This document shows positions 1-46,954 of a stretch of 46,954 bases of DNA, one piece after another. Numbering within the stretch: the first letter of the stretch is position 1; each line of letters opens with the position of its first letter. Source of the DNA: Chiloscyllium plagiosum (taxonomy: Eukaryota); assembly GCF_004010195.1 (NCBI RefSeq), contig NW_025214837.1, forward strand, positions 5,482-52,435, written 5' to 3'. The notes beneath the pieces were generated by a model. The model ran no database searches. It had not been told where the DNA came from and saw only the letters and a program-made list of their open reading frames with translations. Both the position numbers and the translations under genes were made by a program.

Positions 1-272
1 AGGAGAAACTTCTTCACCCAGTGAGTGGTGGCTGTGTGGAATGCTCTGTCCCAGAGGGCAGTGGAGGCCCAGCCTCTGGATTCCCAGTCTCTGGATTCAT
101 TTAAGAAAGAGTTGGATAGAGCTCTCAAAGATAGTGGAATCAAGGGTTATGGAGATAAGGCAGGAACAGGATACTGATTAGGAATTATCAGCCATGATTA
201 TATTGAATGGTGGTGCAGGCTCGAAGGGCTGAATGGCCTACTCCTGCTCATATTGCCTATTGTCTATTGTCT
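1..272 (+). mobile_element. CR1/HER1-type LINE 3' end
   Basis: 3' RT-end sequence (NFFTQ.VVAVWNAL), 3' UTR ggctcgaagggctgaatggcctactcc and (ctattgt)n tail; duplicate of 36830-37094. Confidence 0.9.
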
Positions 273-476
273 AAGCATGGCCAGACAGATCATAGGGTGG
301 AAATAGACTTGGACAGAGTAAGGCATGCAGGATACACTGTCCAGGACAAGCACTAGACAAGATCAACATGAATAAGATCAGCATTATTTGAACTTAGAGA
401 GTCCATTCATCAGTCTAACGTGTTTTTCCTAATAGTTTATATGCCTTAATTAACTCTCCCCACATGAATGCGAAGT

Positions 477-793
477 CGGCACGGTGGCACAGTGGTTAGC
501 ACTGCTGCCTCACAGCGCCAGAGACCCGGCTTCAATTCCCGTCTCAGGCGACTCTCTGTGTGGAGTTGGCACATTCGCCCCGTGTCTGCATGGATTTCCT
601 CCGGGTGCTCCGCTTTCCTCCCACAATCCAAAAATGTGCAGGTTAGGTGAATTGGCCAAGTTAAATTGCCCGTAGTGGTAGGTGAAGGGGCAAATGCAGG
701 GGAATGGGTCTGTGTGGGATGTGCTTCGGCGAGTCGGTGTGGAGTTGTTTCGCCGAAGGGCCTGTTTCCAGACTGTAAGTAATCTAATCTAAT
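477..793 (+). mobile_element. HE1-type tRNA-derived SINE
   Basis: Head cggcacggtggcacagtggttagcactgctgcctcacagcgcc with box A/B-like motifs, CR1-like 3' end, (taatc)n tail. Confidence 0.92.
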
Positions 794-1105
794 CAGCGTG
801 TGAACCCGTACTGAACATTATGTTGTTCACAAGCCCCAACAACAGCCACAACACCTTCCATCTGAAACAGGTAGCCATTCCCACCAGCTCCCGTACTACA
901 TAGAGAACACCAGGCTGTCACCTCGGAGATGGAACATGCCTTTTTGAGACTTCACACAAGCCATATGGCTTCCCTCCTCACCGCGAGTAAACCACGTTAA
1001 TGTCCCACGTGTGTATCATGAGCGATTGCGCCACGAGATACAACGTGGGGCAATCTGTCTGTGCAGCCTCTGCTCCAATTGGTCATCATATTAGAGCATC
1101 AATTA

Positions 1106-1212
1106 GGAGACAGTGAGGACTGCCCATGCTGGAGATCAGAGTACACAGTGGTTTGCTGGAAAAGCAGAGCAGGAGAGTCGACGTTTTGGGCTAGGACATT
1201 CATCAGGATCAG
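1106..1212 (-). mobile_element. Penelope-like pLTR fragment with decayed hammerhead motif
   Basis: Reverse complement matches the end of 22917-23046 (cctgatgaa...aaaacgtcgactctcctgctc...ctctgatctccagcat...gcagtcctcact). Confidence 0.7.
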
Positions 1213-1254
1213 CATCAATTACCCTATTCTGCTCCTGTGTAAGTGCATTGAGGT

Positions 1255-1400
1255 GGGAATGGCCTCCTACTGTTCCTATATAATTGGCTCAACGGGCTGA
1301 ATGGCCTCATTCTGTTCCTGTATAAGTGGCTCAACGGGCTGAATGGCCTCAATCTGTTTCTGTGTAATTGACTCAAAGGACTGTATGATTTCTTCCTTGT
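1255..1400 (+). repeat. ~42-bp minisatellite derived from the CR1 3' tail
   Basis: ggctcaacgggctgaatggcctc at 1286 and 1328, degenerate copy at 1370; also at ~38080-38220. Confidence 0.8.
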
Positions 1401-1472
1401 CTGGTTGGACATGGCCAAGGGCCGAATTGGGTTACCCCTGTTTCCTGTTTGACAGCTCGATGTGCTGACAAA

Positions 1473-1886
1473 TGTGATGATGCCGCAACTTTAAGAGGTT
1501 ATTTTGTCCTGGTTTCTTTTAAGAGAGAGATTGAACGAGCTGGCTAGTTAAGACCACTGGGTAAACAGCGAGGGAGGCCTTGGGTTTATTTTAATGCAGC
1601 TTGAATGGGTGTGGCCAACTCTCACAGATTAGGATCTCTGGGTTTTGGTTTCTCAGCAACATCAGAAAATATTGGGGTCTACACAGAGTTGGAAGCTACA
1701 GTGAATGTCTCCTGGCTGATACTCTCTCTGTATTTTCTCTTGCTGCTGTTTTTAATTCCTGGATTGGAGAAATGGTTGTGACATTCTGTGTCTGAACATT
1801 CATTTTTGCCAAGCGCTATATTGGAACAGTTCATTAGTAATCGCTCCACGATCTATTATTCTGTTAACTTGGCCAACAGAATTACA
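1473..1886 (+). mobile_element. Truncated solo LTR (Gypsy-like)
   Basis: Starts tgtgatga; the paralog at 38294-38910 is longer and contains aataaa; resembles shark Gypsy LTRs. Confidence 0.5.
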
Positions 1887-2989
1887 ACCTCTTTTGTCCA
1901 TGTCAATTGGCCATGATGTAGGAACAACACGTGTTTTCTTAAAAAGATGGTATTGAATGTGACGGTTTCTCTTCTCAAGAATGTTAGGGAGCAAGATGAA
2001 TGAATGTATTTGAAGAAGAGGGAGATGGATATTGACCTGACAGAGAGTTGAGGGCGATGAAGAATTGGGTATGAAAGAGGACTTGAGACCAAGAGCAGAT
2101 CAGTCATGATCTTAGTGAAGGACAAGGCAGGCTTGGGGAGTGAACGACCTGTCCCTGTTTCTGATGCTCTCACATTCTGTTATTGGAGAGTTAGTGGGTG
2201 TTATTGTCATAAATGTGCAATTACTGAATATTGCAGTCAGGAGGACCAGATGATTTTGTGAGCCATCTCTGGTGAGTGTATGGGCTGTATTCAGAGTCAA
2301 TCTGCGTCGACAGCATCACCAACAAATAAAGCACAAGTTGCAGAGAGGGGAAGCTCTGTGAAGAGAGATGAGGGGCCTCTTTCATACCTGTGCCTGGATT
2401 TTCGGATTACATTTCCCAAATCACCTCAAATCGTGTGTGACAGTCTTGAGAGGCTGAATGGTCTCCTCTGTTTCTGTGCACCAGATTATAGGAGTAAGTG
2501 GCCGACTTGGGTAATATTTTAAGTGCCAGCTTTCATCTCAGTGTGGATTTATTATAATCAGGTTACCATTACTGAATTACATAATACACTTTGTATTGTT
2601 AAACAAATGCAAAATATTTGTCTCAACTGTAGGATATTGAGTGCACGTGCTGTGCTATCGAAATTAACTATGAACGTCTTCAATCGCTATTATCTGTAAG
2701 CTACAATATTAAGGAAAGAAATCCTGCAGTCACAGTTTGCCCAATGAAGGGTCTCGAATAGATTATTGTCACTGAACACCACCTCTAACGTGCAACTCCC
2801 CTCTTCCTAATACAATGACATGACACTAGACCGCTGATTACTGTCCAAGCTCTCCTCCCCATTGGCAGTGTCTGCAATCTGTCCCTCCTCCCCCAAACCA
2901 CGCAAGGCAACCCAAGTTCAGGGTCTTTGAGAAATTCAAGGCCGGATTGTGCAAACATCCTGGAGACGGGGAGGATATTTTAAAGGGGG

Positions 2990-3773
2990 AGAGTGAGGAG
3001 GTGGTAATATCACACACTGGGCTGAGGGGTGGCAGATAGAGTTTAGTTTGGATTAATGCGAGGTATTGGATTTCGTAAATTAAACAAGAGCAGGACCTAT
3101 ACAATTAAAAGCAGGGCCTTTGGCAGTGTTGGAGAACAGAAACTTAGGCTATCAGGTATAATTCTTTAAAATTTGCATCTCAGATAGATAGTGTGGTAAA
3201 GGAGGTGTTTAACCTACTTGTCTTCATTGGTCAGACCTTTGAGTGTCGGAATTGGGATGTTATGTTGAGGGTGCACAGGATATTGGTGAGGCCTCTTCTT
3301 GAATACTGTGTCCAGTCTAGTCACCCAGCCCGCTCATTCCATAGGCACACCACCCTCTGGATGAAAAAGCTGCCCCTTAGGTCACTTTTAAGTGTTCCCC
3401 TCTCACCTTAAACCTGCTCCGTCTAGTTTTGGTCTCCCCACCCATAGAAAATACCTTGATTATTCACTTTGATATTACTGACGTTGATATTATAAAGCTG
3501 GAGAGGATCGAGCAGACATTAACCTGGATGTTGTTGGGAATGGAGGGAGTGAGCTATGAGGAGAGGCTGGATAGACTGGGACTCTTTTCTATGGAGAGTA
3601 TGAGATTAAGGAGTAACTTTACAGATGTTTACAAAATAATGAGGGGTACAGAGAAGGTGAAGAGCTGATGTATTTGCCCGACAGTTGGGGATTCAAAACT
3701 CAGTGATATTTTAAGGTGTGAGGAAAAGGGTTGACAGTAGTCATGAGAGGTAATTATTTTAGACAGAATCTGG
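2990..3773 (+). mobile_element. Degenerate CR1 RT C-terminal fragment with an inverted CR1 piece (~3330-3470)
   Basis: LVRPLLEYCVQ and LERI...MLLGMEGVSYEERLDRLGLFS motifs. Confidence 0.85.
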
Positions 3774-4714
3774 NNNNNNNNNNNNNNNNNNNNNNNNNNN
3801 NNNNNNNNNNNNNNNNNNNNNNNNNNNNNNNNNNNNNNNNNNNNNNNNNNNNNNNNNNNNNNNNNNNNNNNNNNNNNNNNNNNNNNNNNNNNNNNNNNNN
3901 NNNNNNNNNNNNNNNNNNNNNNNNNNNNNNNNNNNNNNNNNNNNNNNNNNNNNNNNNNNNNNNNNNNNNNNNNNNNNNNNNNNNNNNNNNNNNNNNNNNN
4001 NNNNNNNNNNNNNNNNNNNNNNNNNNNNNNNNNNNNNNNNNNNNNNNNNNNNNNNNNNNNNNNNNNNNNNNNNNNNNNNNNNNNNNNNNNNNNNNNNNNN
4101 NNNNNNNNNNNNNNNNNNNNNNNNNNNNNNNNNNNNNNNNNNNNNNNNNNNNNNNNNNNNNNNNNNNNNNNNNNNNNNNNNNNNNNNNNNNNNNNNNNNN
4201 NNNNNNNNNNNNNNNNNNNNNNNNNNNNNNNNNNNNNNNNNNNNNNNNNNNNNNNNNNNNNNNNNNNNNNNNNNNNNNNNNNNNNNNNNNNNNNNNNNNN
4301 NNNNNNNNNNNNNNNNNNNNNNNNNNNNNNNNNNNNNNNNNNNNNNNNNNNNNNNNNNNNNNNNNNNNNNNNNNNNNNNNNNNNNNNNNNNNNNNNNNNN
4401 NNNNNNNNNNNNNNNNNNNNNNNNNNNNNNNNNNNNNNNNNNNNNNNNNNNNNNNNNNNNNNNNNNNNNNNNNNNNNNNNNNNNNNNNNNNNNNNNNNNN
4501 NNNNNNNNNNNNNNNNNNNNNNNNNNNNNNNNNNNNNNNNNNNNNNNNNNNNNNNNNNNNNNTTCACTTCGTCTGGTTTGTATCAGGATTTTTGTTGCTC
4601 CATTGACAGCATGTCATTATTCGACTCTGTCCGTGGGAATATAGCCGTATTTCACTTTCTCACACTAGTGAGTGTCGCGGAATTTCAGTTGTTGCATGGG
4701 AACTGTGACGCTAT

Positions 4715-5000
4715 AACAATCTCAATGTTTGCAGATGGCACCAAACCTGGAAGAATTGTAAAGTCTATGGAGGACAGTGTGGAACTCTAACAGGACAGTG
4801 ATACGTTGGTGTAGTGTTCAGGTGTATGGCAGCTGGCGATCAGTACAGAGCAGTGTGAGCGATGCAGTTAGGTAGGAAAGACAATGAAAGACAGTTTAAA
4901 ACAGGCCATACCGTTAAATAGGGGCTGCAGGAACAGAGAGCGCTGCATATATATGAGCATAGATTGTTGAAGATGTCAGGACAAGTGAGGAAAGCAGTAA
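4715..5000 (+). mobile_element. Degenerate CR1 RT fragment
   Basis: ISMFADGTKPGRIV..EDS resembles the CR1 ISKFADDTKLGG motif; copies at 8195-8271 and 46215-46500. Confidence 0.75.
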
Positions 5001-5004
5001 CTCT

Positions 5005-6190
5005 CACAGATTAGTTTCAGTTTCTGAGCTGTTTAAAGGGAGAGGTGTAGGAGGGAGTCTCGGTGCTCCCTTCCTGGGAGGTGGTGGAGACAATGTGTTG
5101 TGAGCCCACCCTCCTGCCCACCGAGACCATGGGGATTCCATTTGTACCAGCTCAACACAAAAGGGAGATGGCATCAGGGCCACGGCTTCTAAATTGTGCC
5201 GGGGGAAACGGAGCTGCCAGTGGGTTAAAAGTGAGAATTGCCCTTCACAGAACATGGCTCCTTGGTCAGTGTGACGTGGCTATTTCAGAATCTCTACACG
5301 AGGCGTCCCGGTCCTGTCCGGCTTGTACCAGGGTCCTCCCCACATGGCAGGGGTAGGGGGGTGAGGGAACGGATATCGGGCACTCCACCACCCGGCTTGG
5401 CCCTCTCTGTCCTATTCCAGGCTGTTTCTCCTGGAATTGGAGAAGGGGAGGGCTGGAGTGAGGGTGGGGGTGGGTGGCCCTGCTGTTAGTGCTGGTGTAG
5501 GTGGGGGTCAGTGTCATGGTGAGGTGTCCGGAGGGAATCAGTCCACAGTGTTGTATGCATGCAGCATTATTAGTGTAGGGGAGTGGGGTAAATTGGAGGG
5601 AAGGGGGTGGGTGGCGAAGGTGCTGCATGCAGTAGTGAGAATGGTGGAGCATGAGCCTTGTTCGGGGGTCGGTGCTATAACAGATATACAGTGAGTGTGA
5701 GGGAACAGACAGAATACGGTGACCCTTATCCTGAAAGAGCGGGGAAGGTTTTGAAACTTGACCTGTATTGCTGGGCATTTCTTCAGACCGCAGAAACTGC
5801 ACTGAGGTAGGTGGTGAGCTCAGACCATGCTTGATGGGTCTGGTGGTGTGGCCTCCTCTGGAAAGAGAATGGTCTCATTCTGTACTAGCTCATCCACCAG
5901 CACCTCCTTGCCCATGATCTGTCATGCTCGAGGTAAACTGTGCAGGGCAGCTCCGAACTGAGAAAGATCAACCGTGTGCTCATTGGCCTTTTAAAGATGG
6001 CACCAGTGCCAGTGATAACAGAATATCCAGGGGCACCCGGACGATTGTGAGTACCACCCGCCAATATGGGTGGGAGAATCGGGCTGGTATTGAATGATAG
6101 AGACACCATGGGGTTGGGTGGGTAGTTAATGAGGTGAGTCCGATACGATAGCACCAGGAAACTATCTCAGCCTCGTGCGGACGATCCCTC
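5005..6190 (-). mobile_element. PIF/Harbinger-like DNA transposon remnant with decayed Myb/SANT-like ORF
   Basis: Minus strand ~5920-5740 reads EVLVDELVQNETILFP...AWSELTTYLSAVSAV*RNAQQYR, like Myb/SANT DNA-binding domains of Harbinger; boundaries approximate. Confidence 0.6.
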
Positions 6191-6659
6191 AGTCACATTC
6201 ATGGAAAATCAAACAAAGATTGTTAGAATCTGCCCAATGAGTCATAGATTCGGTTGAAAGCAATTCCAGTAACAAAGATGCAGAACAAATGCTCATCTGG
6301 CCACACACCAATATCCTTTTTTCCCATCTTTCCTGGGAAGATAGGTTCATGTTAGAGGATGTTATCGAAGTGTCTACATTTGAACATTCTGAAACCTAGG
6401 AACACATCCTTCCATGATACTGTCTCTCAGTCTCCCCCTCTCTGTCTATTCCCCAAACCAATCCCATGTAGTGATATTCAAACTGATTCCCCCGCGATCT
6501 CTCTCTGGCGCTGATGTGTCATATCCACAGTACTCTCTTGTCATGGTAGAATGGAGATATGAAGCTGTTAATGGGTGGGAGTTGCAGATCCTGTCACTTC
6601 CAGCACGGGCTGCAAGTTTCCCCTACTGCGCAGGGATCTAACACAGTGTTACTGAGGAA

Positions 6660-6837
6660 TGCAGTGGGTTGGTGTACAGAGCTCTACATGCCGGGAGGGT
6701 AACTGCTCCTGGTTTACAGATCAATGTAATGGGGTGGGGTACACAGTGCTATATGTTGGTTGGGTAACTGCTCCTGGTTTACAGATCAATGCACTGGGGT
6801 GGTGTACACAGTCCTACATACTGGGAGGGTAACTGCT
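6660..6837 (+). repeat. 65-bp minisatellite (~3 units)
   Basis: aactgct at 6701, 6766, 6831. Confidence 0.85.
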
Positions 6838-7201
6838 TCAGTGATATTTTAAGGTGTGAGGAAAAGGGTTGACAGTAGTCATGAGAGGTAATTATTTTAG
6901 ACAGAATCTGGTTTATGTGTGGAATGAACTCCCAGAGCAATTGTTGAAAGCAGGGAAAGTTACAATGTTTGAAGGACATTTAGATCAGTACATGGATAAG
7001 ACATCAGTTTGGTTGGTGCTGTGAGCAGCTGCCCTCTCCCTCCCCCTCTCTGAATGAATCTCTGTTGGTTTTCACTCTCTGCCAATGCAGGTGCAGTGGC
7101 GTGGGGAGGCCAGCAGAGGGTGGCATTGCATTACTCAAAGCACCACAGAGACTGCCAGACCTGCCCCACACAGAGACACACAGATACACACACACAGGAA
7201 T

Positions 7202-7968
7202 TGTCAGGGCGCGACATGAAGCTCATCTGGTAACTTAAACTAAACATAAAGAAATGCTCAATTTGCCTCATAAACTGTTAAAATATGAGTGACAGAGAAC
7301 TCCCACATTCCACTATTTACATAATAACATCAATTTATTTTTTAATTCTGAGAGGGAACATTTTACATCAAGCATTCTGAATTCTGAGACCTCCTTTCTT
7401 TTAACTGCTTATTACCCCACTCCAACTATATAATGATATACTGTTTCAAAAAGACACTTATTAAAATTGCACTCATTTAATTTCAAAATCACACAGCAGC
7501 TGTTGTTTGTGTGTTTTCTTGTGGCCATGGATCTCTCTGGGTCGTCGTCTTTCTTTTTACTGCGAATATGTTCCATATGAAAAGGTACCTTTGATAGAGA
7601 GTGTTTCCTAAACTCTTGGATCTGTGTTGATGGCATTTACTCTGTCTGCAATTTTCTAAATGCCTGCATTTTTAATATGCACAACGTCGGATCATCTCAT
7701 TGGTTCAACTTCTGAAAACCAATACATTCAAACTTGATTTGGTTTTAGTATCATGCGGCATAATTTAAAGTGTTTGGTAAAATTCGAATTATTGTCCAAG
7801 GAGCAACCATCTCAGGGATCTATTTCACAGCCAAATGTGACATATTTTCAGTTGTCCTTCACACTCTGGGTCTGCCATCCTCTCATATCACAGGTGCTTG
7901 GTAGCTCTCAGTTCAGAACAGCTTTCCCTCTCTCTTAAAGGTACATGCACACTTTCGACTTCATGACA
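7202..7968. mobile_element. Probable solo LTR (~770 bp)
   Basis: Terminal inverted tgtca...tgaca (TG...CA), no coding content; paralog 45206-45986. Confidence 0.5.
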
Positions 7969-9874
7969 TTAATACCCTGATGTCAATACAGAAACTTGGA
8001 GCCAATCTGGAATTCTCTTCTCTATGGTTTGTCAATATTTCATTCACTTCGTCTAGTTTGTATCAGGATTTTTATTGCTCCATTGACAGCATGTCATTAT
8101 TCGACTCTGTCCGTTTGGAATATAGCGGGATTTCACTTGCTCACACTCGTGAGAGTCGCAGAATTTCAGTTATTGCATGGGAACTGTGACGCTATAACAA
8201 TCTCAATGTTTGTAGATGGCACCAAACCTAGAAGAATTGTGAAGTCTATGGAGGACAGTGTGGAACTCTAANNNNNNNNNNNNNNNNNNNNNNNNNNNNN
8301 NNNNNNNNNNNNNNNNNNNNNNNNNNNNNNNNNNNNNNNNNNNNNNNNNNNNNNNNNNNNNNNNNNNNNNNNNNNNNNNNNNNNNNNNNNNNNNNNNNNN
8401 NNNNNNNNNNNNNNNNNNNNNNNNNNNNNNNNNNNNNNNNNNNNNNNNNNNNNNNNNNNNNNNNNNNNNNNNNNNNNNNNNNNNNNNNNNNNNNNNNNNN
8501 NNNNNNNNNNNNNNNNNNNNNNNNNNNNNNNNNNNNNNNNNNNNNNNNNNNNNNNNNNNNNNNNNNNNNNNNNNNNNNNNNNNNNNNNNNNNNNNNNNNN
8601 NNNNNNNNNNNNNNNNNNNNNNNNNNNNNNNNNNNNNNNNNNNNNNNNNNNNNNNNNNNNNNNNNNNNNNNNNNNNNNNNNNNNNNNNNNNNNNNNNNNN
8701 NNNNNNNNNNNNNNNNNNNNNNNNNNNNNNNNNNNNNNNNNNNNNNNNNNNNNNNNNNNNNNNNNNNNNNNNNNNNNNNNNNNNNNNNNNNNNNNNNNNN
8801 NNNNNNNNNNNNNNNNNNNNNNNNNNNNNNNNNNNNNNNNNNNNNNNNNNNNNNNNNNNNNNNNNNNNNNNNNNNNNNNNNNNNNNNNNNNNNNNNNNNN
8901 NNNNNNNNNNNNNNNNNNNNNNNNNNNNNNNNNNNNNNNNNNNNNNNNNNNNNNNNNNNNNNNNNNNNNNNNNNNNNNNNNNNNNNNNNNNNNNNNNNNN
9001 NNNNNNNNNNNNNNNNNNNNNNNNNNNNNNNNNNNNNNNNNNNNNNNNNNNNNNNNNNNNNNNNNNNNNNNNNNNNNNNNNNNNNNNNNNNNNNNNNNNN
9101 NNNNNNNNNNNNNNNNNNNNNNNNNNNNNTGCCATGCTCGAGGTAAACTGTGCAGGGCAGCTCCGAACTGAGAAAGCTCAACCGTGTGCCCATTGGCCTT
9201 TTAAAGATGGCACCAGTGCCAGGGATCACGGAATATCCAGGGGCACCCGGGCGATTGTGAGTACCACGCGTCAAGATGGGTGGGAGAATCGGGCTGGTAT
9301 TGAATGAGAGAGACATCATGGGGTGGGCTGGGTAGTTAATGAGGTGAGTCCGACACGATAGCACCAGGAAACTATCTCAGCCTCGTGCGGACGATCCCTC
9401 AGTCACACTCATGGAAAATCAAACAAAGATAAATTATTGTTAGAATCTGCCCAATGAGTCATAGATTCAGTTGAAAGCAATTCCAGTAACAAAGATGCAG
9501 AACAAATGCTCATCTGGCCTCACACCAATATCTTGTTTTCCCATCTTTCCTGGGAAGACAGTTCATGTTATAGGATGTTATCGAAGTGTCTACATTTGAA
9601 CATTCTGAAACCTGGGAACACATCCTTCCATGATACTGTCTCTCAGTCTCACCCTCTCTGTCTAGTCCCCAAACCACTCCCATGTCGTGAAATTCAAACT
9701 GATTCCCCCGCGATCTCTCTCTGGCACTGATGTTCATATCCACAGTACCCCCTTGTCATGGTAGAATGGAGATATGAAGCTGTTAATGGGTGGGAGTTGC
9801 ACATCCTGTCACTTCCAGCACGGGATGCAAGTTTCCCCTACTGCGCAGGGATCTAACACAGTGTTAATGACGAA

Positions 9875-10132
9875 TGCAGTGGGTTGGTGTACAGAGCTCT
9901 ACATGCCGGGAGGGTAACTGCTCCTGGTTTACAGATCAATGCACTGGGGTGGGGTACACAGTGCTATATGTTGGTTGGGTAACTGCTCCTGGCTTACAGA
10001 TCAATGCACTGGGTTGGTGCACACAGTCCTACATGCTGGGAGGGTAACTGCTCCTGGTTTACAGATCAATGCACTGGGGTGGTGGACACAGTCCTACATT
10101 CTGGGAGGGTAACTGCTCCTGGGTTACAGATT
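9875..10132 (+). repeat. 65-bp minisatellite (~4 units)
   Basis: aactgctcctgg at 9916, 9981, 10046, 10111. Confidence 0.9.
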
Positions 10133-10616
10133 AATTCACGGGTGATCACTGCACAGATCGCTGTGCTGGTCAGTCATTCTGGTTGAGGTTTACAGATACT
10201 GCAATGATTTGGTCTGTGCAGTTCCCCATGCTGGATGGATATTTGTTTCAGGTTCACACATAAGTGCCCTGCTGTGTCTGCTCATCTCCCCGTGCTGGAC
10301 AGATATGTAGCCTGTGCACAGTACATCATGACGGTGGGGTGCAGGAGGGGAAAGGATATGGACAGCTGAAGGAGATCCTGGAACGTTCTGTCCCCGACAT
10401 TCTATAACTGACATCCCCGGAACGTTCTGTCCCCAACATTCCAAAACTGACATTTTTGTCAGTAATTCCGACCTTCCCATTTGTTATTCCAGATCCAATT
10501 ATTTTAATAAATCCCTGAATACAGTGGCACATTTGAAAATCTCACTGGGTCCCCGATCAAACGGGTCCCTTTGCCTCCAGGCTGATGGATAATGGGTTTG
10601 TTTTCCTTCCTCACAG

Positions 10617-10689
10617 TTAACGTAGTGACCATCTACGTCCTGCTTTATAAAGATTGTGGATTGTCTCCATGTGTCAGACGTTACCTGGG
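10617..10689 (+). CDS. Start of the large coding exon of a GPR139/GPR142-like class A GPCR (end of TM1, ICL1, start of TM2); runs into the N gap
   Basis: Polypyrimidine acceptor ttttccttcctcacag|TT AAC GTA GTG; translation (V)NVVTIYVLLYKDCGLSPCVRRYL matches the shark GPR139-like pattern VN..AI.IL..GKCGLS.C..RYL.AMA; phase-1 intron just before the TM1 Asn as recalled for GPR139. Confidence 0.75.
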
Positions 10690-11514
10690 NNNNNNNNNNN
10701 NNNNNNNNNNNNNNNNNNNNNNNNNNNNNNNNNNNNNNNNNNNNNNNNNNNNNNNNNNNNNNNNNNNNNNNNNNNNNNNNNNNNNNNNNNNNNNNNNNNN
10801 NNNNNNNNNNNNNNNNNNNNNNNNNNNNNNNNNNNNNNNNNNNNNNNNNNNNNNNNNNNNNNNNNNNNNNNNNNNNNNNNNNNNNNNNNNNNNNNNNNNN
10901 NNNNNNNNNNNNNNNNNNNNNNNNNNNNNNNNNNNNNNNNNNNNNNNNNNNNNNNNNNNNNNNNNNNNNNNNNNNNNNNNNNNNNNNNNNNNNNNNNNNN
11001 NNNNNNNNNNNNNNNNNNNNNNNNNNNNNNNNNNNNNNNNNNNNNNNNNNNNNNNNNNNNNNNNNNNNNNNNNNNNNNNNNNNNNNNNNNNNNNNNNNNN
11101 NNNNNNNNNNNNNNNNNNNNNNNNNNNNNNNNNNNNNNNNNNNNNNNNNNNNNNNNNNNNNNNNNNNNNNNNNNNNNNNNNNNNNNNNNNNNNNNNNNNN
11201 NNNNNNNNNNNNNNNNNNNNNNNNNNNNNNNNNNNNNNNNNNNNNNNNNNNNNNNNNNNNNNNNNNNNNNNNNNNNNNNNNNNNNNNNNNNNNNNNNNNN
11301 NNNNNNNNNNCCATCCGGGATTTTCTCATTTCAGTTCAGTGTTTCAGCAATGGGGCAACCTGTCGCTATGGTAACAGACTGAGGGTAGCGCTGGTTTGTC
11401 CACCCTTATCCGACAGGGGGTTACAGGGAAACATTTCAATGTTCCTCACAACTCAGGGGCCAGTGAGAAAAGGACCCATCCCACAGACTGTATCCATCAT
11501 TTCCATTTATAAAC

Positions 11515-11520
11515 AATAAA
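11515..11520 (+). promoter_or_regulatory. Candidate polyadenylation signal of the GPCR transcript
   Basis: AATAAA, followed by ATTAAA at 11528 and a GT-rich tract at ~11559-11580, ~200 bp after the gap holding the exon body. Confidence 0.4.
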
Positions 11521-20700: not shown

Positions 20701-20791
20701 TCTTAAGATTTGATAATATTTTCTTTCTTTTGACTGGCGAATTACTCCCCTTGACATTCCAGGTGCACCATTAAGCCGACTGATCAACCAT
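17742..20791 (-). pseudogene. L1 ORF2 (APE endonuclease plus reverse transcriptase), with frameshifts and stops
   Basis: MVDQSA*WCTWNVKG, LLQETHL, GGDFN, SDH, APGPDG, SLDAEKAFDRVEW, RQGCPLSPLLF, YADD; split over several ORFs and cut before the C-terminal Zn knuckle. Confidence 0.93.
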
Positions 20792-21254
20792 AATCTTCTG
20801 GGCCAATCCGAGACCCCTCGGGAGGGGGAACCCTATCCAGAACATCCCGAGCGTAGAACATTTAAAATTTACAAAAATAAAACCTCTTTAATACATCCAC
20901 AACAATACAATAAAAAACTATTTCTAAATAAAAAAAATATAAAACGTATCTAAGTGGAGATTTTCCCCCTTGTTCCCAGGGGGTGTCACTTCCTCTCCAA
21001 AAGTCCATCATATCCTCTCCCAACCAATGCCCCACCCTTAACCCAGGCACTCTTCAATAAAATGAGGAGAATATAAAATAATAACAGAAAACAATCCCGG
21101 GGGAGGTGGGGGGGGGGGGGGGGTGGTGGAGAAAATCAAATCCCTGTCCCCACCACCCATGATAATATTAAACAGTAAGGTAAGAGAAAAAAAACGTGGG
21201 GATATAAACCAAAGCGGGGGGAAAGGCAAACCGACATCCATTATGTCTTACTGT

Positions 21255-22103: not shown

Positions 22104-22255
22104 TTTTACTAAGGATTAAATTGTTTAAATGTAATATTACACAACTAATTAAATTACACAACTATTATAAATGATTTGGTGAGCGTGGTAGTGGGTGGGT
22201 GACCCACTGTACCCAAGTCTTGGGAGGAACACGATAGACGCAGTCTTGCTGGGTT

Positions 22256-22267
22256 GCCGCCATCTTG
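22256..22267 (-). promoter_or_regulatory. YY1-type motif at the L1 5' end
   Basis: CAAGATGGCGGC 8 nt from the element 5' end, as in mammalian L1 internal promoters. Confidence 0.65.
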
Positions 22268-22274
22268 GATCCCC

Positions 22275-29712: not shown

Positions 29713-29720
29713 CTGCAATA

Positions 29721-36107: not shown

Positions 36108-37094
36108 AGTTAATGATGTAGAAGATGGTATCAGCAATAACATTAGCAAATTTGCTGATGATACAAAGCTGGGTGGCAGGGTGAAATGTGATGAGGATGT
36201 AAGGAGATTACAGGGTGACCTGGACAAGTGAGGTTAGTGGGCAGATGCATGGCAGTTGCAGTTTAATGTGGATAAATGTATGGTTGTCCACTTTTGGTAG
36301 CAAGAACAGGAAGGCAGACTATTACCTCAATGGAATCAATTTATGTAAAGGGGTAGTACAGAGAGATCTGGGTGTTCTTGTACACCAGTCAATGAAGGCA
36401 AGCATGCAGGTACAGCAGGTAGTGAAGAAGGCTAATAGCATGCTGGCCTTCATAACAAGAGGGATTGAGTATAGAAGCAAAGAGGTGCTTCTGCAGCTGT
36501 ACAGGGCCCTGGTGAGACCACACCTGGAGTACTGTATGCAGTTCTGGTCTCCAAATTTGAGACAAGACATTCTGGCTATTGAGGGAGTGCAGCGTAAGTT
36601 CACGAGGTCAATTCCTGGAATGGCAGGATTACCTTACACTGAAAGACTGAAGCGACTGGGCTTGTTTCCCCTTGAGTTTCGAAGATTGAGAGGGGATCTG
36701 ATTGAGACGTATAAGATTATGAAAGGATTGGACACTCTGGCAGTTGGAAACATATTTCCACTGATGGGTGAGTGCTGAACCAGAGGACACAACTTAAAAA
36801 TAAGGGGTGGACCATTTAGGAGAGAGCTCAAGAGAAACTTCTTCACCCAGAGAGTGGTGGCTGTGTGGAATCCTCTGCCCCAGAGGGCAGTGGAGACCCA
36901 GTCTCTGGATTCATTTAAGAAAGAGTTGGATAGAGGTCTCAAAGATAGTGGAATCAAGGGTTATGGAGATAAGGCAGGAACAGGATACTGATAAGGAATT
37001 ATCAGCCATGATTATATTGAATGGCGGTGCAGGCTCGAAGGGCTGAATGGCCTACTCTTGCACCTATTGTCTGTTGTCTATAATCTATTGTCTA
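36108..37094 (+). mobile_element. 5'-truncated CR1/HER1 LINE (RT C-terminus, 3' UTR, tail)
   Basis: ISKFADDTKLGG, RDLGVLVH, LVRPHLEYCMQFWSP, RLRGDLIETYKI; (ctattgt)-type tail. Confidence 0.95.
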
Positions 37095-37297
37095 AGCATG
37101 GGCAGACAGATCATAGGGTGGAAATAGGCTTGGACAGAGTAAGGCATGCAGGATACACTGTACAGGACAAGCACTAGACAAGATCAACATGAATAAGATC
37201 AGCATTATTTGAACTTAGAGAGTCCATTCATCAGTCTAACGTGTTTTTCCTAAAAGTTTATATGCCTTAATTAACTCTCCCCACATGAATGCGAAGT

Positions 37298-37614
37298 CGG
37301 CACGGTGGCACAGTTGTTAGCACTGCTGCCTCACAGCGCCAGAGACCCGGCTTCAATTCCTGTCTCAGGCGATTCTCTGTGTGGAGTTGGCACATTCGCC
37401 CCGTGTCTGCGTGGATTTCCTCCGGGTGCTCCGCTTTCCTCGCACAGTCCAAAAATGTGCAGATTAGGTGAATTGGCCAAGTTAAATTGCCCGTAGTGGT
37501 AGGTGAAGGGGTAAATGTAGGGGAATGGGTCTGTGTGGGATGTGCTTCGGCGTGTCGGTTTGGAGTTGTTTCACCGAAGCGTCTGTTTTCACACTGTAAG
37601 TAATCTCATCTAAT
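37298..37614 (+). mobile_element. HE1-type SINE (duplicate of 477-793)
   Basis: Same flanks and diagnostic substitutions. Confidence 0.92.
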
Positions 37615-40092
37615 CGGTGTGTGAACCCGTACTGAACATTATGTTATTCACAAGCCCCAACAGCAGCCACAACACCTTCCATCTGAAACAGGTAGCCATT
37701 CCCACCAGCTTCCGCCCTACATAGAGAACGCCAGGCTGTCACCTCGGAGATGGAACATGCTTTCTTGAGACGTTACACAAGCCATATGGCTTCTCTCCTC
37801 ACCGCGAGTAAACCACGTTAATGTCCCACGTGTGTATCATGAGCAATGGCGCCACGAGATACAACGTGGGGCAATCTGTCTGTGCAGCCTCTGCTCCAAT
37901 TGGTCATCATATTAGAGCATCAATTAGGAGACAGTGAGGACAGCCCATGCTGGAGATCAGAGTAGACAGTGGTTTGCTGGAAAAGCAGAGCAGGAGAGTC
38001 GACGTTTTGGGCTAAGCCATTCATCAGGATCAGCATCAATTACCCTATTCTGCCCCTGTGTAAGTGCATTGAGGTGGGAATGGACTCCTACTGTTCTTAT
38101 ATAAGTGGCTCAACGGGCTGAATGGCCTCATTCTGTTCCTGTATAAGTGGCTCAACGGGCTGAATGTCCTCATTCTGTTTCTGTGTAATTGACTCAAAGG
38201 ACTGAATGACTTCTTCCTTGTCCGGTTGGACATGGCCAAGGGCCGAATTGGGTTACCCCTGTTTCCTGTTTGACAGCTCGATGTGCTGACAAGTGAGATG
38301 ATGCCGCAACTTTAAGAGGTTATTTTGTCCTGGTTTCTTTTAAGAGAGAGATTGAACGAGCTGGCTAGTTAAGATCACTGGGTAAACAGCGAGGGAGGCC
38401 TTGGGTTTATTTTAATGCAGATTGAATGGGGGTGACCAACTCTCACAGATTAGGATGTCTGGGTTTTGGTTTCTCAACAACATCAGAAAATATTGGGGTC
38501 TACACAGAGTTGGAAGCTTCAGAGAATGTCTCCTGGCTGCTACTCTGTCTGTATTTTCTCTTGCTGCTGTTTTTAATTCCTGGATTGGAGAAATGTTTGT
38601 GACATTCTGTGTCTGAACATTCATTTTGGCCAAGCGCTGTGTTTATGGGATTTCTCTATATTGGAACAGTTCATTAGTAATCGCTCCACGATCTATTATT
38701 CTGTTAACTTGGCCAATAGAATTACGTTATTCTAAATTCCTCTTTCTTTGATTTCATTTTATCTTCCCTGTTTAAATAAATGGTGTTTGCTTCACAACGC
38801 GTGGTTTGACCAGTCACATTGCATCTGGAACAGACAGTTTACATTTCCTTTAAAATACGAAAACATTCGAGTCAAGGCTACCGCCTTCAAATATTTTTGA
38901 AGGGGAGGGGCGGGGACGGTGGGGAGGGTGGGGAAGGTGGAGGCGGAGAGACACTGATGAATCAGCTGAAGATGTTTGTGAAGGGGAAGCTACCCTGAGG
39001 ACCTCCCACAGAGGTGACCCAGGACTGAGATGGTGAACATCTTCCTTTGTGCCATGTTTGACTCCAAACACTGGACAGTTTAGTCTGATTCCCATTAAGT
39101 CCATCTTTATTAAGCTCCTTGATGTCAACAAAAGCCAACCATTGCCTTGATATCAGGACCAGTCATTTTTACCTGAACCCTTGTGCCAACCTCTTTTGTC
39201 CATATCAATAGGCCATGATATAGGAACAACACGTGTTTTCTTAAAAAAAAAAATGGTATTGAATGTGACGGTTTCTCTTCTCAAGAATGTTAGGGAGCAA
39301 GATGAATGAAAGTATTTGAAGAAGAGGTAGATGGATATTGACCTGACAGAGAGTTGAGGGCGATGAAGAATTGGGTATGAAAGAGGACTTGAGACCAAGA
39401 GCAGATCAGTCATGATCTTAGTGAAGGACAAGGCAGGCTTGGGGAGTGAATGACCTGTCCCTGTTTCTGATGCTCTCACATTCTGTTATTGGAGGGTTAG
39501 AGGGTGTTATTGTCATAAATGTGCAATTACTGAATATTGCAGTCAGATGATTTTGTGAGCCATCTCTGGTGAGTATATGGGCTGTATTCAGAGTCAATCT
39601 GCGTCGACAGCATGACCAACAAATGAAGCACAAGTTTCAGAGAGGGGAAGCTCTGTGAAGATAGATGAGGGACCTCTTTCATACCTGTGCCTGGACTTTC
39701 GAATTACATTTCCCAAATCACTTCAAATCGTGTGTGACAGTCTTGAGAGGCTGAATGGTCTCCTCTGTTTCTGTGCACCAGATTATAGGAGTAAGTGGCC
39801 TCCAACTGTCCCTGTCTAGCAGGTATGAGAGGCTGAATGGAATACAGAAACATGGGACTGAGGAGCAGGAGTGGGTCATTAGACACTTTGAGCCTTCTCC
39901 AGTAGGCACTAAGATTGTGGCTGATCAGATTGGGGTCTCACCCCATTTTCCTGTCTGTATCCCAATATCCGTGACTTACTTCCCTGTCAAATATTTAATA
40001 ATGCAGCTTTCAATCAAAATGAACCGAGAGGCACGATAAACTTTCAGTGAAGAGAATCCCCACTTGAAAGGTCAGTTTAGAATTTTTCGTCA

Positions 40093-41650
40093 TTCTTCTT
40101 ATAGAATCAGAGAGTCATGCAGAACAGAAACAGACCCGTTAGTCCAATCTGTTCACCCCAATCAGATATCAAATCTGATCTCGTCCCATTTGCCAGCATT
40201 TGACCAATATCCCTCCTCTTGCAGATACTTTTTAAATGTGCGATTGTAACCGCCTTCAGCACTTCCTCTGACAGCACTGTCTGTACACACACCACTCTCT
40301 GTGTGAAAATTAATCTCCAGGTCCCGTCTAAATCATTCGCCCTCTCCCTATCAACCTATGCCTCTGAATCTGGTCTCCCCTATCCTGAAGAGCAGAACGT
40401 GGCTGTTCATAATATCCATTCCCCTGATGATTTTATAAGCAATTATAATTTCACCCTTCAGCCTCTGACACTTCAGGGAGAAACACCTCAACCTAATCAA
40501 CCTCTCCAAGGGACATCTGCGTAAATCTTTTCTGCAGACAACCGCGTTGTAGGCAGTTTTCTTAAAATGGCCTTCCCAACATTGTGTACAGATGCAACAT
40601 GCCACCACAATCCCTATACTCAATGCTCTGACTGATTAAGGCAAATGTGCCAAATACGTTCAGCACCACTCTGTCTACCTGCGATTCCAATTTCAAGGAA
40701 CAATGTACCTGCAGCCCTAGGTCCCTTTGTTCCGTAACACTCCCCAGAATCTTAGCATTAAGTGTATAATTTCTTCCTAAAATGCAAAACCTTATTTTTA
40801 TCTAAATAAACTTCATCTGTCACCCCTTGCCCTTTGTCCCATCTAAATGTGGTCTCGTTGTACTCTGAGATAATCTTGATTCGATTAGATTACTTACAGT
40901 GTGGAAACAGGCCCTTCGGGCCAACAAGTCCACACCGACCCGCTGAAGCGCAACCCACCCATACCCCTACATTTACCCCTTTAACCTAACACTACGGGCA
41001 ATTTAGCATGGCGAATTCACCTGACTGTGGGAGGAAACCGGAGCTCCCGGAGGAAACCCACGCAGACACGGGGAGAATGTGCAAACTCCACACAGTCAGT
41101 TGCCTGAGTCGGGAATTGAAGCCGGGTCTCTAGCGCTGTGAGGCAGCAGTGCTAACCACTGCGCCACCGTGCCGCACACCCACCTTCTTATGGAATTTGT
41201 AAAATTACTAACTATGACCCCGATATCCACATCCCCAATATTACATAAATGATGAAATGCAGTGAACTGAGCACTGATTCTCGCAGCACACTGCTGGTCA
41301 CAAGCCTCCAGTCTGAAAAATATCCCTCTTCCTTCAAGCCAATTGTGACTAGCTTCTTCTGTGTCCCATGTGACCGAACCTTTAATCTGTCTACCAATTG
41401 GAATGTTATGAACACCTTGCTGAAGTCCATATAGACAATGTCTACCAAATTGCCTTCATTAATCTTCTTTTTTACCTCTTCATAAAACTCAACCAAATTA
41501 ATGAGACATGATTTCCTTTGTAGAAAGACACGTTGTCCAACTCGATCAGCCCTTGCCTTCCCAAATGTATGTAAATGCTATCCCTCAGAATCCCCTCCAA
41601 CAACTTACCCACCACTGACATCAGGCTTACCCGTCTATAGTTCCCCGACT
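40093..41650 (-). mobile_element. Degenerate CR1 fragment interrupted by an HE1 SINE
   Basis: Minus strand EFYEEVKKKINEG..VDIVYMDFSKVF, RLKGEII.AYKI. Confidence 0.82.
40877..41175 (-). mobile_element. HE1-type SINE with a short internal deletion
   Basis: gattagattacttacagtgtggaaacaggccc...gctaaccactgcgccaccgtgccgc. Confidence 0.92.
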
Positions 41651-42164
41651 TTTTGGGTCACTATTTCCTTTTCTCGTCCCACGCCTCCACTGCTCACAAC
41701 AAATTTTAAATGTAACCAGGTTGGTGATATGGCCGATAATATTGGTCTCAGACTGGGTCAGGGTCAGTTTTAGGAACAAGTCAGGGTAGTTTCTTTAATC
41801 TGCTAAAACAACACGTTTATGATCCAGAGCAATGTTACTCAAACTATGATGGAAAGATGAATTGGAAACTGTTTGGGTATTGCAAATATATAATCAATAT
41901 TTCCCTGTTTAAAATGCTGAGACACACATACACACAATCTCTGCAATTTGAAGTTGAAAGAACTTTGTCCAAATATTAATGTAACTTATAACAAAAGGAA
42001 AAATTGCGAGATTGTCCAAAATGTGATTCGGCTTCTGAAGATATTCTATTCACACAAGCTGCTAACAATGGGATTTCATCCGGGGACAGTTGGATTTGGC
42101 TGAATTACCTTTGCATTAGGCAGTGAGAAAATTCCAATGGATTCTGGTCAGTAATCACCCAAAG

Positions 42165-42490
42165 TGCAGCACAGTTGCTCACTGGTTAGCACTGCTACCT
42201 CACAGCACTAGAAACAGGGGTTCTATTCCAGTCTCGGGCGACTATCTGTGTGAGGTTTGTACATTTTCCCTTTGACTGCGTGAGCTTCTAATAGGTGCTC
42301 CAGTTGCCTCGTACAGCTCAAACTGTGTGCATTCGGTGGATTGGTCATGCTAAGTTGTCTGTCGTATTCAGGGATTTCTAGGTTAGGTGCATTAGTCAGA
42401 AGTAAATCTCACGAACGGGCCTGGCAAGTTTACTGGTTCGAAGTTTGGTATGGACTTGGTGAGCCGAAGGGCCTGTTTGCACACTGCATG
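42165..42490 (+). mobile_element. Old HE1-type SINE
   Basis: Diverged head gcagcacagttgctcactggttagcactgctacctcacagc and tail gccgaagggcctgttt. Confidence 0.75.
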
Positions 42491-42939
42491 AATTCTTTAA
42501 AAATGAGAATGGTAATGATGACCGTATAGGGTTTTATTTTTAGCTCACACACATTGCTGTGATGAGGAATAATGAGGGAGGGAGAGAGAGTATAATAGGC
42601 CATTCCTTCTCAGTAAGATTACATTCTCTCCCTCTCTGAGTTGAATCACACAATAATGTCATCCTCTCCCAAACTGGATCATGTGAGGTCTCCTTGTATA
42701 ATGTCCAAACTATGTCTCCGTCACACTCCCTGTTCCATGTCGATGCATCATTGTTGCCATCTCGCACATAGCCATACCCATAGCAGAAAGTGGTCTTCGT
42801 CAATTTGAAAATATGTTGATATGCCCCTGCATCTTTAAAAAAATAAGATATTTAATGCATTTAGAATGCCTGTGTTTAAATGAATGCATTTTTAAAAGAA
42901 ATACAGAAATTGCTGGTAAAGATCGGCAGGCCTGTCAGT

Positions 42940-43168
42940 ACCCAGATGCCTTTTACATGTTGTAGTTGTACCATCCTCCACCATTTCCTCTGGCAGCTCA
43001 TTCCATATGCACACAACCCTCTGTGTGAAAAGGTTCCTCTTAGTCCTCTTCAAAACCTTTCCCCTCTCACTTTCATCCAATGCCCTCTAGTTTTGAACGC
43101 CCCTAACCTGGGGGAAAACCCTAACTACTCACCCTATCCATGACCGTTCTGATTTTGTAAACCTCTAC
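42940..43168 (-). mobile_element. CR1 fragment
   Basis: RNLFTQRVVCIWNELPEEMVE. Confidence 0.8.
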
Positions 43169-44149
43169 TGCTGCAAGATGTGACTCCAATCAACACGAAT
43201 TGCTGTGCTTTCAGTCATTCCGGGCCTAAATTCTGAAATTCAATTCTGACACTTCTTTCTCCATCAGGTCACAATTCTACAACCAGTTTAATCAGTTTTG
43301 TCAGATGTATCATGAGACACTTCTGTGGGATTAACACCGAGACCTTTGTTCTCGGAGGTAGGGAAACTAGCATCACTGGGCAATACCCATAAAGCTGTAA
43401 CAGTATTCTCCTGTGTGTTTGTTCATCAGCCTGGTCTGACATGCTGTGACATATCTCTGCAACAGGCAGGACTTGAATCCAGTGCTACTAGTCCAAAGCT
43501 AGGAACACTACCACTCAAGTTCAGGAATTAAAATCAAATCCAGAGTTCTGGTCCAGAGCCAGGGACACTATCCACTATGCTACCATACCCAGATTTTGGG
43601 TCATATTTTAAGTGCCAGCTTTCAGCTCGGAGTGGATTTATTATAATCAGGTTACCATTACTGAATTACATAAAACACTTTGTATTGTTAAACAAATGTA
43701 AGATATTTGTCTCAACTGTAGGATATTGAGTGCACGTGCTGTGCTATCGAAATTAACTATGAACGTCTTCAATCGCTATTATCTGTAATCTACAATATTA
43801 AGGAAAGAAATCCTGCAGTCACAGTCTGTCCAATGAAGGGTCTCGAATAGATTATTATCACTGAAAACCACATACAACGAAAAACATAATTTCTGGTCCC
43901 AAAACACCGATCAATATTACTCACCTCTAACGTGCAACTGCCCTCTTCCTAATACAATGACATGACACTAGGCCGCTGATTACTGTCCAGCCTCTCCTCC
44001 CCATTGACAGTGTCTGCAATCTGTCCCTCCTCCCCTAAACCACACAAGGCAACCCAAGTTCAGGGTCTTTGTGAAACTCAAGGCCGGAGTGTGCAGGCCT
44101 CCTGGAGACGGGGAGGATATTTTAAAGGGGGAGAGTGAGGAGGTGGTAA

Positions 44150-45005
44150 TGTCACACACTGGGCTGAGGCATGGCAGAAGGAGTTTAGTTTGGATTAATG
44201 CGAGGTATTGGATTTCGTAAATCAAACAAGAGCAGGACCTATACAATTAAAAGCAGGGCCTTTGGCAGTGTTGGAGAACAGAAACCTAGGCTATCAGGTA
44301 TAATTCTTTAAAATTTGCATCTCAGATAGACAGTGTGGTTAAGGAGGTGTTTAACACACTTGTCTTCATTGGTCAGACCTTTGAGTATTGGAATTGGGAC
44401 GTTATGTTGAGGTTGCACAGGATATTGGTGATGCCTCTTCTGGAATACTGCGTCCAGTCTGGTCACCCTGCCCGCTCATTCCATAGGCACACCACCCTCT
44501 GGGTGAAAAAGCTGCCCCTTAGGTCACTTTTAAGTGTTCCCCTCTCACCTTAAACCTGTACTGTCTAGTTTTGGTCTCCCCACCCATAGAAAATACCTTG
44601 ATTATTCACTTCGATATTATTGATGTTGATATTATAAAGCTGGAGAGGATTGAGCAGACATTAACCTGGATGTTGTTGGGAATGGAGGAAGTGAGCTATG
44701 AGTAGAGGCTGGATAGACTGGGACTCTTTTCTATGGAGAGTATGAGATTAAGGAGTAACTTTACAGAGGTTTATAAAATAATGAGGGGTACAGAGAAGGT
44801 GAAGGGCTGATGTCTTTTCCCGACAGTTGGGGATTCAAAACGCAGTGATATTTTAAGGTGTGAGGAAAAGGATTTACAGTAGTCATGAGAGGTAATCATT
44901 TTAGTCAGAATCTGGCTTATGTCTGGAATGAACTCCCAGAGCAATTGGTGAAAGCAGGGACAGTTACAATGTTTGAAGGACATTTAGATCAGTAGATGGA
45001 TAGGA
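44150..45005 (+). mobile_element. Degenerate CR1 (duplicate of 2990-3773)
   Basis: Same sequence, here complete across the region gapped in copy 1. Confidence 0.85.
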
Positions 45006-46954
45006 CATCAGTTTGTGTGGTGCTGTGAGCAGCTGCCCTCTCCCTCCCCCTCTCTGAATGAATCTCTGTTGGTTTTCACCCTCTGCCAATGCCGGTGCAG
45101 TGGCGTGGGGAGGCCAGCAGAGGGTGGCATTGCATTACTCAAAGCACCAAAGAGACTGCCAGACCTGCCCCACACAGAGACACACAGATACACACACACA
45201 GGAATTGTCAGGGCGCGACATGAAGCTCATCTGGTAACTTAAACTAAACATAAAGAAATGCTCAATTTGCCTCGTAAACTGTTAAAATATGAGTGACGGA
45301 GAACTCCCATATTCCACTGTTTACATAATAACATCAATTTATTTTTTTAACTCTGAGAGGGAACATTTTCCATCAAGCATTCTGAATTCTGAGACCCCCT
45401 TTCTTTTAATTGCTTATTACCCCACTCCAACTCTATAATGATATAATGTTTCAATAAGACACTTATTAAAATTGCACTCATTTAATTTCAAAATCACACA
45501 GCAGCTATTGTTTGTGTGTTTTCTTGTGGCCATACATCTCTCTGGGTCGTCGTCTTTCTTTTTACTGCGAATATGTTCCATATGAAAAGGTACATTTGAT
45601 AGAGAGTGTTTCCTAAACTCTTGGATCTGTGTTGATGGCATTTACTCTGTCTGCAATTTTCTAAATGCCTGCATTTTTAATATGCACAACGTCGGATCAT
45701 CTCATTGGTTCATCTCATTGGTTCAACTTCCGAAAACCAATACATTCTAACTTGATTTGGTTTTAGTACCCTGTGGCATAATTTAAACTGTTTGGTAAAA
45801 TTCGAATTATTGTCCAAGGAGCAACCATCTCAGGGATCCATTTCACAGCCAACTGTGACATATTTTCAGTTGTCCTTCACACTCTGGGTCTGCCATCCTC
45901 TCATATCACAGGTTTTTGGAAGCTCTCAGTTCAGAACAGCTTTCCCTCTCTCTTAATGGTACATACACACTTTCGACTTCATGACATTAATACCCTGATG
46001 TCAAAACAGAAACTTGGAGCCAATCTGGAATTCTCTTCTCTATGGTTTGTCAATATTTCATTCACTTCGTCTGGTTTGTATCAGGATTTTTGTTGCTCCA
46101 TTGACAGCATGTCATTATTCGACTCTGTCCGTGGGAATATAGCGGTTTTTCACTTTCTCACACTAGTGAGTGTCGCGGAATTTCAGTTGTTGCATGGGAA
46201 CTGTGACGCTATAACAATCTCAATGTTTGTAGATGGCACCAAACCTGGAAGAATTGTAAAATCTATGGAGGACAGTGTGGAACTCTAACAATACAATCAC
46301 ATGTTGGTGTAGTGTTCAGGTGTATGGCAGCTGGGGATCAGTGCAGAGCAGTGTGAGGTGATGCAGTTTGGTAGGAAAGACGATGAAAGACAGTTTAAAA
46401 CAGGCCATACCGTTAAATAGGGGCTGCAGGAACAGAGAGCGCTGCGTGTATATGAACATAGATTGTTGAAGATGTCAGGACAAGTGAGGAAAGCAGCAAC
46501 TCTCACAGATTAGTTTCAGTTTCTGAGCTGTTTAAAAGGGGAGATGTAGGAGGGAGTCTCGGTGCTCCCTTCCTGGGAGGTGGTGGAGACAATGTGTTGT
46601 GAGCCCACCCTCCTGCCCACCGAGACGATGGGGATTCCATTTGTACCAGCTCAACACAAAAGGAAGAAGGCATCAGGGCCACTGCTTCTAAATTGTGCCG
46701 GGGGAAACGGAGCTGCCAGTGGGTTTAAAGTGAGAATTGCCCTTCACAGAACATGGCTCCTTGATCGGTGTGACGTGGATATTTCAGAATCTATACACGA
46801 GGCGTCCCGGTCCTCTCTGGCTTGTACCAGGGTTCTCCCCACATGGCAGGGGTAGGGGTGTGAGGGAACGGATATCGGGCACTCCACCACCCGGCTTGGC
46901 CCTCTCTGTCCTATCCCAGGCTGTTTCTCCTGGAATGGGAGAAGGGGAGGGCTG

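Follow-up and report, generated by a model that had tools for sequence, protein, structure and literature searches.

A 46,954-nucleotide stretch of Chiloscyllium plagiosum DNA (assembly GCF_004010195.1, contig NW_025214837.1, positions 5,482 to 52,435, forward strand), referred to here as the window, was observed to contain two direct copies of one segment, the first of which leads towards the start of exon 2 of a class A G-protein-coupled receptor (GPCR) of the shark 'probable GPR139' family. We consider it moderately probable that a tandem duplication carrying exon 2 gave rise to this arrangement by unequal crossover between repeats, and that drift and deletions followed.

Self-BLAST and global alignment resolved the similarity between 3-5455 and 36832-46954 into four collinear blocks, all in direct orientation: 3-1885 with 36832-38725, 1885-2503 with 39187-39800, 2507-3773 with 43596-44915, and 4563-5455 with 46061-46954. 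Copy 1 (3..5455, forward strand) is the 3' part of the receptor gene's intron 1, mostly decayed repeats, and is cut at the left edge of the window; copy 2 (36832..46954, forward strand) holds no receptor-coding sequence and is cut at the right edge. The aligned bases cover 4,638 of the 4,666 non-N bases of 1-5455 and contain 196 substitutions, a divergence of 4.2% (3.0-5.1% per block). This divergence was uniform across 23 bins of 200 columns (chi2 21.2, df 22, p 0.51), as expected for a single old duplication without much patchy conversion, and the longest identical run between the copies was 122 bases. The recurrence of 1-5455 at 36830-46954 with scattered substitutions, which a sequence-only reading of the window had reported, is thereby borne out. 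Its repeat length of about 37-41 kb has to be given up, since that figure is the offset between the copies, which rises from 36,829 to 41,498, and no more than about 5 kb of copy 1 can be seen a second time. Homology continues to both window edges and is cut there, so that the crossover junction lies outside the view. The 31 kb separating the two copies is present once within the window, and comparison of 11311-36831 with 1-11310 gave interspersed-repeat matches only, which argues that there is no hidden third unit.

Shared transposable-element insertions, also claimed earlier, were found as well. A transfer RNA-type short interspersed element (SINE) at 477..788 in copy 1, which we take to be HE1-like, has its counterpart at 37298..37609 in copy 2, as determined by self-BLAST and SINE comparison. 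Both lie on the forward strand, at the same site and with the same flanks, and the pair differs by 5.4%, against 9.9-13.1% in four comparisons with two other copies of that SINE, those involving the element at 477..788 giving 9.9-11.2%. Fragments of CR1-type reverse transcriptase (RT) likewise lie at corresponding places in both copies. The offset rises because copy 2 holds 461 bp (38726..39186) and 3.8 kb (39801..43595), both on the forward strand, that are absent from copy 1. The first cuts an element resembling a long terminal repeat (LTR), as judged by eye, and the second is a mosaic built up from old fragments of CR1 and SINE elements. Since neither shows a target-site duplication and the longer is such a mosaic of old repeats, these differences are probably deletions in copy 1, not insertions in copy 2. 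Both copies also contain a 42-bp minisatellite (1257-1387 and 38078-38208).

The receptor exon begins at 10617 on the forward strand, behind a pyrimidine tract and an acceptor AG at 10615-10616, and similarity to the family begins exactly at this position. Its 73 visible coding bases (10617..10689) encode the end of transmembrane helix 1 (TM1), the first intracellular loop and the start of TM2. All 24 residues are identical to those of model P0098 and of six other carpet-shark models; identity is 18-24 of 24 to the carpet-shark clade and 12-16 to the models of other sharks that cover the fragment. When 1.84 billion representative sequences were searched, four of the five matches at E<=0.001 were family members, all zebra-shark models, and the fifth, P0001, was rejected as a repetitive unrelated protein. 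The 24-residue fragment had no match in the PDB and a 34-residue fragment none in Pfam, the intactness of the exon of about 300 codons (7tm_1) being hidden by an N run at 10690..11310. Just beyond that run, 11312..11350 (forward strand) corresponds to sequence past the family's usual stop codon, with 11 of 13 residues matching the read-through C-terminus of whale-shark P0009 (E 0.005). The exon start precedes the 3' flank, as it should, at roughly the expected distance, and an AATAAA lies in the flank at 11515. Given this flank, the order along the window is upstream region, exon 2, 25 kb, and upstream region again. No second receptor exon was found in the window. Within 11343-11377, ahead of the AATAAA, we noticed a 14-mer that resembles an RFX X-box; it may be due to chance.

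This exon start is the sole host coding sequence found in the window, and it matches proteins of carpet sharks (Orectolobiformes). Its closest relatives form a carpet-shark subfamily that includes XP_072415156.1 of Chiloscyllium punctatum, XP_048456461.1 of Rhincodon typus and XP_059502962.1 of Stegostoma tigrinum. It shares with them the first 24 residues of exon 2, the phase-1 intron directly before the TM1 Asn, which is characteristic of the family, and the 3' flank, and differs from them in that only 73 coding bases are visible and the window shows no exon 1. The family is plainly present in RefSeq annotations. In a search with a zebra-shark model, 1,411 of 2,858 candidates passed E 1e-10; all 120 matches listed were shark proteins, most of them named 'probable G-protein coupled receptor 139', while the unlisted remainder may include other receptors. 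In a quick tree of 73 rows picked by hand from 178 proteins (5 more were dropped for lacking the anchor motif), the carpet-shark clade holding the fragment comprised 33 rows with a support of 98 in the Shimodaira-Hasegawa-like approximate likelihood ratio test (SH-aLRT), and a horn shark clade comprised 17 rows with a support of 92. As for genomic position, 16 of the 29 whale-shark models examined lie on a single 94-Mb sequence, and seven of ten accessions looked up fall within 32 numbers, which is suggestive of a cluster only. Among family proteins P0008-P0184 we also noticed species-specific clades, N-terminal 13-residue repeats with N-x-T sites, and hypervariable second and third extracellular loops (ECL2 and ECL3).

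Outer segments of the family are far more variable than inner ones (entropy 0.74 against 0.26 bits), as calculated on 42 of 57 carpet-shark rows after truncated, divergent and duplicate-isoform rows had been dropped. This fits ligand diversification and is no proof of positive selection. Outer loops vary more than the rest in most GPCR families.

The earlier reading had called the exon GPR139-like. It does belong to the shark 'probable GPR139' family, and human GPR139 is the best solved-structure match of that family (E 2.3e-9). The two-exon gene is common to the family, GPR139 and GPR142; His 5.43 and Trp 6.48 are kept in 42 of 42 relatives, and the aromatic residue at 3.33 is also kept. In contrast, relative P0008 has about 79 identities over 287 residues with human GPR139 (about 27%, counted by hand). 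In the accessible part of one study, the zebrafish GPR139 orthologue is given as 70% identical to human (PMC7318219). The residues E108, F109, H187, W241, R244 and N271 of the Trp/Phe agonist pocket of GPR139 correspond to L, Y, H, W, L and F in the relatives, with E108, R244 and N271 replaced by Leu, Leu and Phe in 39-40 of the 42. Because of this low identity and these three replacements, the shark family, on sequence grounds, is not a GPR139 orthologue and 'GPR139-like' is an annotation label, a judgement made on relatives and not on the window's hidden exon. The family also differs from GPR139 and GPR142 in being multi-copy. It may function as class A receptors for peptides or amino acids do in the GPR139/GPR142 group, a group that is related, according to the accessible part of PMC8514136, to the protostome receptors for MIP, FMRFamide and proctolin. 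A survey of vertebrate rhodopsin-like receptors, in the portion available, places extra GPR210 subtypes near GPR139, with GPR210A/B being receptors of bony fish, and the word 'shark' is absent from that portion (PMC6504862).

The way from copy 1 to the exon also leads across a local tandem duplication. Unit A (3701..6838) and unit B (6839..10142), both on the forward strand, have a true period of about 3,480 bp and show 54 differences over 1,217 comparable bases (4.4%); their junction at 6838/6839 is blunt and falls within gap-free sequence. Through unit B there is a third version of 3701-4790, at 6839-8271, and all three versions are 4.0-4.4% apart overall. The local units share a 65-bp minisatellite (6658-6837 and 9873-10139), inside which the local duplication breaks. 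The region is interrupted by three N runs. The run of 789 at 3774..4562 corresponds to paralogous stretches of 1,131 and 1,145 bases and that of 858 at 8272..9129 to one of 1,129, while the run of 621 at 10690..11310 covers the rest of exon 2 and makes 695 bases available where 899-908 are needed. They are thus shorter by 342, 271 and at least 204 bases than paralogues or family exon length demand, from which we infer that they are estimated scaffold gaps.

A further irregularity was observed on the far side of the exon. Two identical 140-bp units begin at 12033 and are followed by a 35-bp minisatellite (12367..17742, about 5.4 kb, 153 copies, 150 of 154 blocks identical), which stops abruptly at 17742, inside the second open reading frame (ORF2) of a LINE-1-type element. 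That element (17743..22273, reverse strand) is near-complete: its ORF1-like frame at 21255-22115 is open over 286 codons, and its ORF2, encoding endonuclease and RT, is frameshifted. It is inserted into a CR1 element and its 3' end is missing. ORF2 ends at the array after about 1,016 codons; a full-length LINE-1 ORF2 has about 1,270. The continuation of the interrupted CR1 was looked for to the left of the LINE-1 and was not found. The cut ORF2 and the CR1 without continuation indicate that real DNA is missing here, by deletion or by gap filling. The array looks like a gap-filling artefact, or it may be a very young expansion at a deletion.

Taking these observations together, we propose that a carpet-shark genome long ago underwent an intrachromosomal duplication, head to tail, which took in the 3' part of intron 1 and, most likely, exon 2 as well. 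The duplication would probably have occurred by unequal crossover between the abundant repeats. The copies would then have drifted apart by 4.2%, with copy 1 losing the 461 bp and the 3.8 kb, and the 3.5-kb local tandem duplication would have arisen at about the same depth as the large one. In support of this, a chain of homology connects copy 2 with sequence that lies 0.5-10 kb upstream of exon 2. The second exon 2 is predicted at 1.9 or 5.4 kb past the right edge, at a period of about 38 or 42 kb: the distance from 46954 is 1,947 bases without the local duplication and 5,427 with it, and the earlier calculation of about 2 kb for the former case was right. The process may be seen as part of the birth-and-death evolution of a large shark-specific receptor family. 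Birth-and-death tandem receptor arrays are familiar from the olfactory, V2R/OlfC and TAAR clusters. The shark family resembles these in its lineage-specific paralogue clades, its partial copies and the variability of its outer face, and differs from them in being an orphan, peptide-receptor-like family, of which the window shows one gene and part of a second unit.

Several observations weigh against this proposal. Over the 44,686 visible bases, a search in six frames found no exon 1 (the highest score with a hidden Markov model (HMM) was 3.8 bits), and a tandem cassette that is complete would have to include one somewhere from 11374 to the next exon 2, where none is visible. The links on either side of the exon are also vulnerable: that from copy 1 to the exon crosses N runs, and that from the 3' end of the exon to copy 2 crosses the possibly filled array. 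The earlier statement that copy 1 leads into the exon therefore holds in that it reaches it, and only across two N runs and the local 3.5-kb duplication. Within the local duplication, 11 of the 15 variable sites of a 228-base three-way patch are private to unit B (p 0.002), and the 73 bases adjoining that patch, at the left end of the unit, are identical in A and B; this juxtaposition hints at conversion or at chimeric contigs. Lastly, five Chiloscyllium punctatum models of the subfamily lie on five different chromosome-scale sequences, so that tandem arrays are not the sole mode of spread and dispersal is also common.

The missing exon 1 deserves closer consideration. It was searched for with a splice-motif pattern, with a motif scan combined with tblastn using four proteins, and with an HMM and a tblastn search that both drew on 100 of 125 proteins. 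All 24 planted controls with up to 35% decay were detected, as were 22 of 24 that consisted of the last 20 residues at 20% decay. A tblastn match to P0091 proved to hit a CR1 piece inside that model and not exon 1, and an 'MGQPV..' at 11352, tried as a first exon, meets a stop after 10 codons and has no family score. Where copy 1 has its two gaps, the paralogous sequence is visible and is also without exon 1; the exon 1 of copy 1 therefore lies to the left of position 1 or is lost. That of copy 2 must either have been in the DNA missing at the 35-bp array or be absent. The earlier description of a receptor-gene cassette agrees with the direct copies, the shark exon 2 and the multi-copy family, and disagrees with the want of an exon 1 in the visible window; the unit as assembled is probably not a clean whole-gene cassette. 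If exon 2 was indeed duplicated in tandem, we assign about two thirds of that reading to duplication without exon 1 and about one third to an exon 1 in the DNA missing at the array.

A comparable absence was observed in annotated relatives. All six Chiloscyllium models examined (P0062, P0098, P0116, P0124, P0140 and P0147) are without the family exon 1; among whale- and zebra-shark models it is lacking in 20 of 51 (Fisher p 0.006), all of these being gene models in which annotation may have failed. The N-terminus of P0098 is a fragment of LINE-1 ORF1 and that of P0140 comes from read-through of the intron, and such starts are annotation stop-gaps. Three of the exon-1-less Chiloscyllium models differ at 24-28 of 131 outer positions and at 3-5 of 128 inner ones; this contrast indicates that constraint acted as they diverged, and that a distant first exon probably exists, or existed, for them. 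A whale-shark exon 1 used as a database query found 17 of 26 candidates, among which Chiloscyllium was not represented, a weak negative as known bearers of exon 1 were missed.

Among the alternatives, it is unlikely, though the best placed of them, that only non-coding upstream DNA was duplicated, with homology stopping before exon 2 and no second receptor exon beyond the window. Copy 2, as far as it is visible, consists of decayed repeats without receptor sequence, and this locus has often undergone large deletions and partial duplications. On the other side, the copies are still 96% alike where the window ends, with the predicted exon only about 1.9 kb away, and the shark receptor family duplicates often. 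Slightly less likely again is the explanation that real paralogues from different cassettes or loci were joined by scaffolding, in which case the 37-41 kb spacing and the tandem order would partly be artefacts. N runs falling 204-342 bases short of paralogue-predicted content, like estimated scaffold gaps, would be consistent with such a misjoin, as would the 73-base exact overlap at a gap edge, the near-perfect 5.4-kb array beside a LINE-1 that is cut at its 3' end and whose host CR1 does not continue, and the dispersed paralogues of C. punctatum. Against it, the pieces join in the order predicted by the gap-free copy 2, and the exon start and 3' flank are correctly ordered at roughly the right spacing.

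We regard it as improbable that the duplicated unit is exon 2 by itself, which covers six and a half of the receptor's seven helices, and that its copies would be used as terminal exons that exclude one another, each being spliced to a single exon 1, with its promoter, far away. Such an arrangement would be compatible with the absence of exon 1 from the 36 kb after the gene, with the six of six Chiloscyllium models that lack it, and with the constrained appearance of these models. If true, one locus could give rise to several receptors with different outer faces.

The least probable explanation treats the two copies as haplotypes of a single locus that were left uncollapsed. A gapped assembly in a repetitive region would favour it. 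Against it stand the uniform divergence of 4.2%, which exceeds about 20-fold the mean nucleotide diversity of 0.002 given for the related epaulette shark in the accessible part of PMC10587355 and is accompanied by several indels, two of them large, and the third version of 3701-4790, which at similar distance is more than two alleles permit. Both considerations make paralogy likely, and the copies are probably paralogues, judging from divergence and not from read depth. Dating them with the pedigree rate of 7e-10 per generation in the same accessible text (PMC10587355) gives about 3e7 generations, which is too crude and was not used. A sequencing-run search with 9130-10689 returned 14 rows from 6 studies under 2 organism labels, with 37-55% of words matching, and is uninformative on copy number; no RNA runs were among the listed matches.

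Apart from the receptor exon, the window consists of LINE-1, CR1, SINE and LTR-retrotransposon debris and minisatellites, and an Rfam scan of 1-36800 gave no match. A decayed Gypsy-type LTR retrotransposon occupies about 30800-35600 on the forward strand. Its integrase-like pieces (33511-34527, weak Pfam matches) lie ahead of RT/RNase H-like sequence recognised by eye, an order that we take to be that of Gmr1-like elements. A decayed non-LTR retrotransposon at about 24250-27100 (forward strand) carries an internal 183-bp direct repeat (24266-24448 and 25350-25532, 86%), and an older relative of it lies inverted at 28997-29488.

As a segmental duplication within shark DNA rich in repeats, the repeat itself is ordinary, and it is a new instance of gene-family duplication. 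The large receptor family represented beside it is of more interest. We found no published description of this family in a search that largely left out subscription papers and did not cover supplements, and that is therefore a weak negative; the accessible parts of a GPR139 review (PMC12208981) and of the catshark genome paper (PMC11979771) contain nothing on it. A shark repertoire of many paralogues per genome appears to be undescribed. According to the accessible part of a whale-shark genome paper (PMC8455134), cartilaginous fishes show a 'relative paucity' of GPCRs, in contrast to which the public annotations contain a very large shark family mislabelled as GPR139. The window offers one snapshot of the growth of this family and raises the question whether copying of exon 2 proceeds without exon 1. 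A ligand-diversifying repertoire of sensory or immune receptors would show the features seen in this family: clades specific to lineages, inner faces that are conserved and outer loops that vary. If the shark family is indeed undescribed, its tissue and its ligands would be directly testable with existing RNA data.

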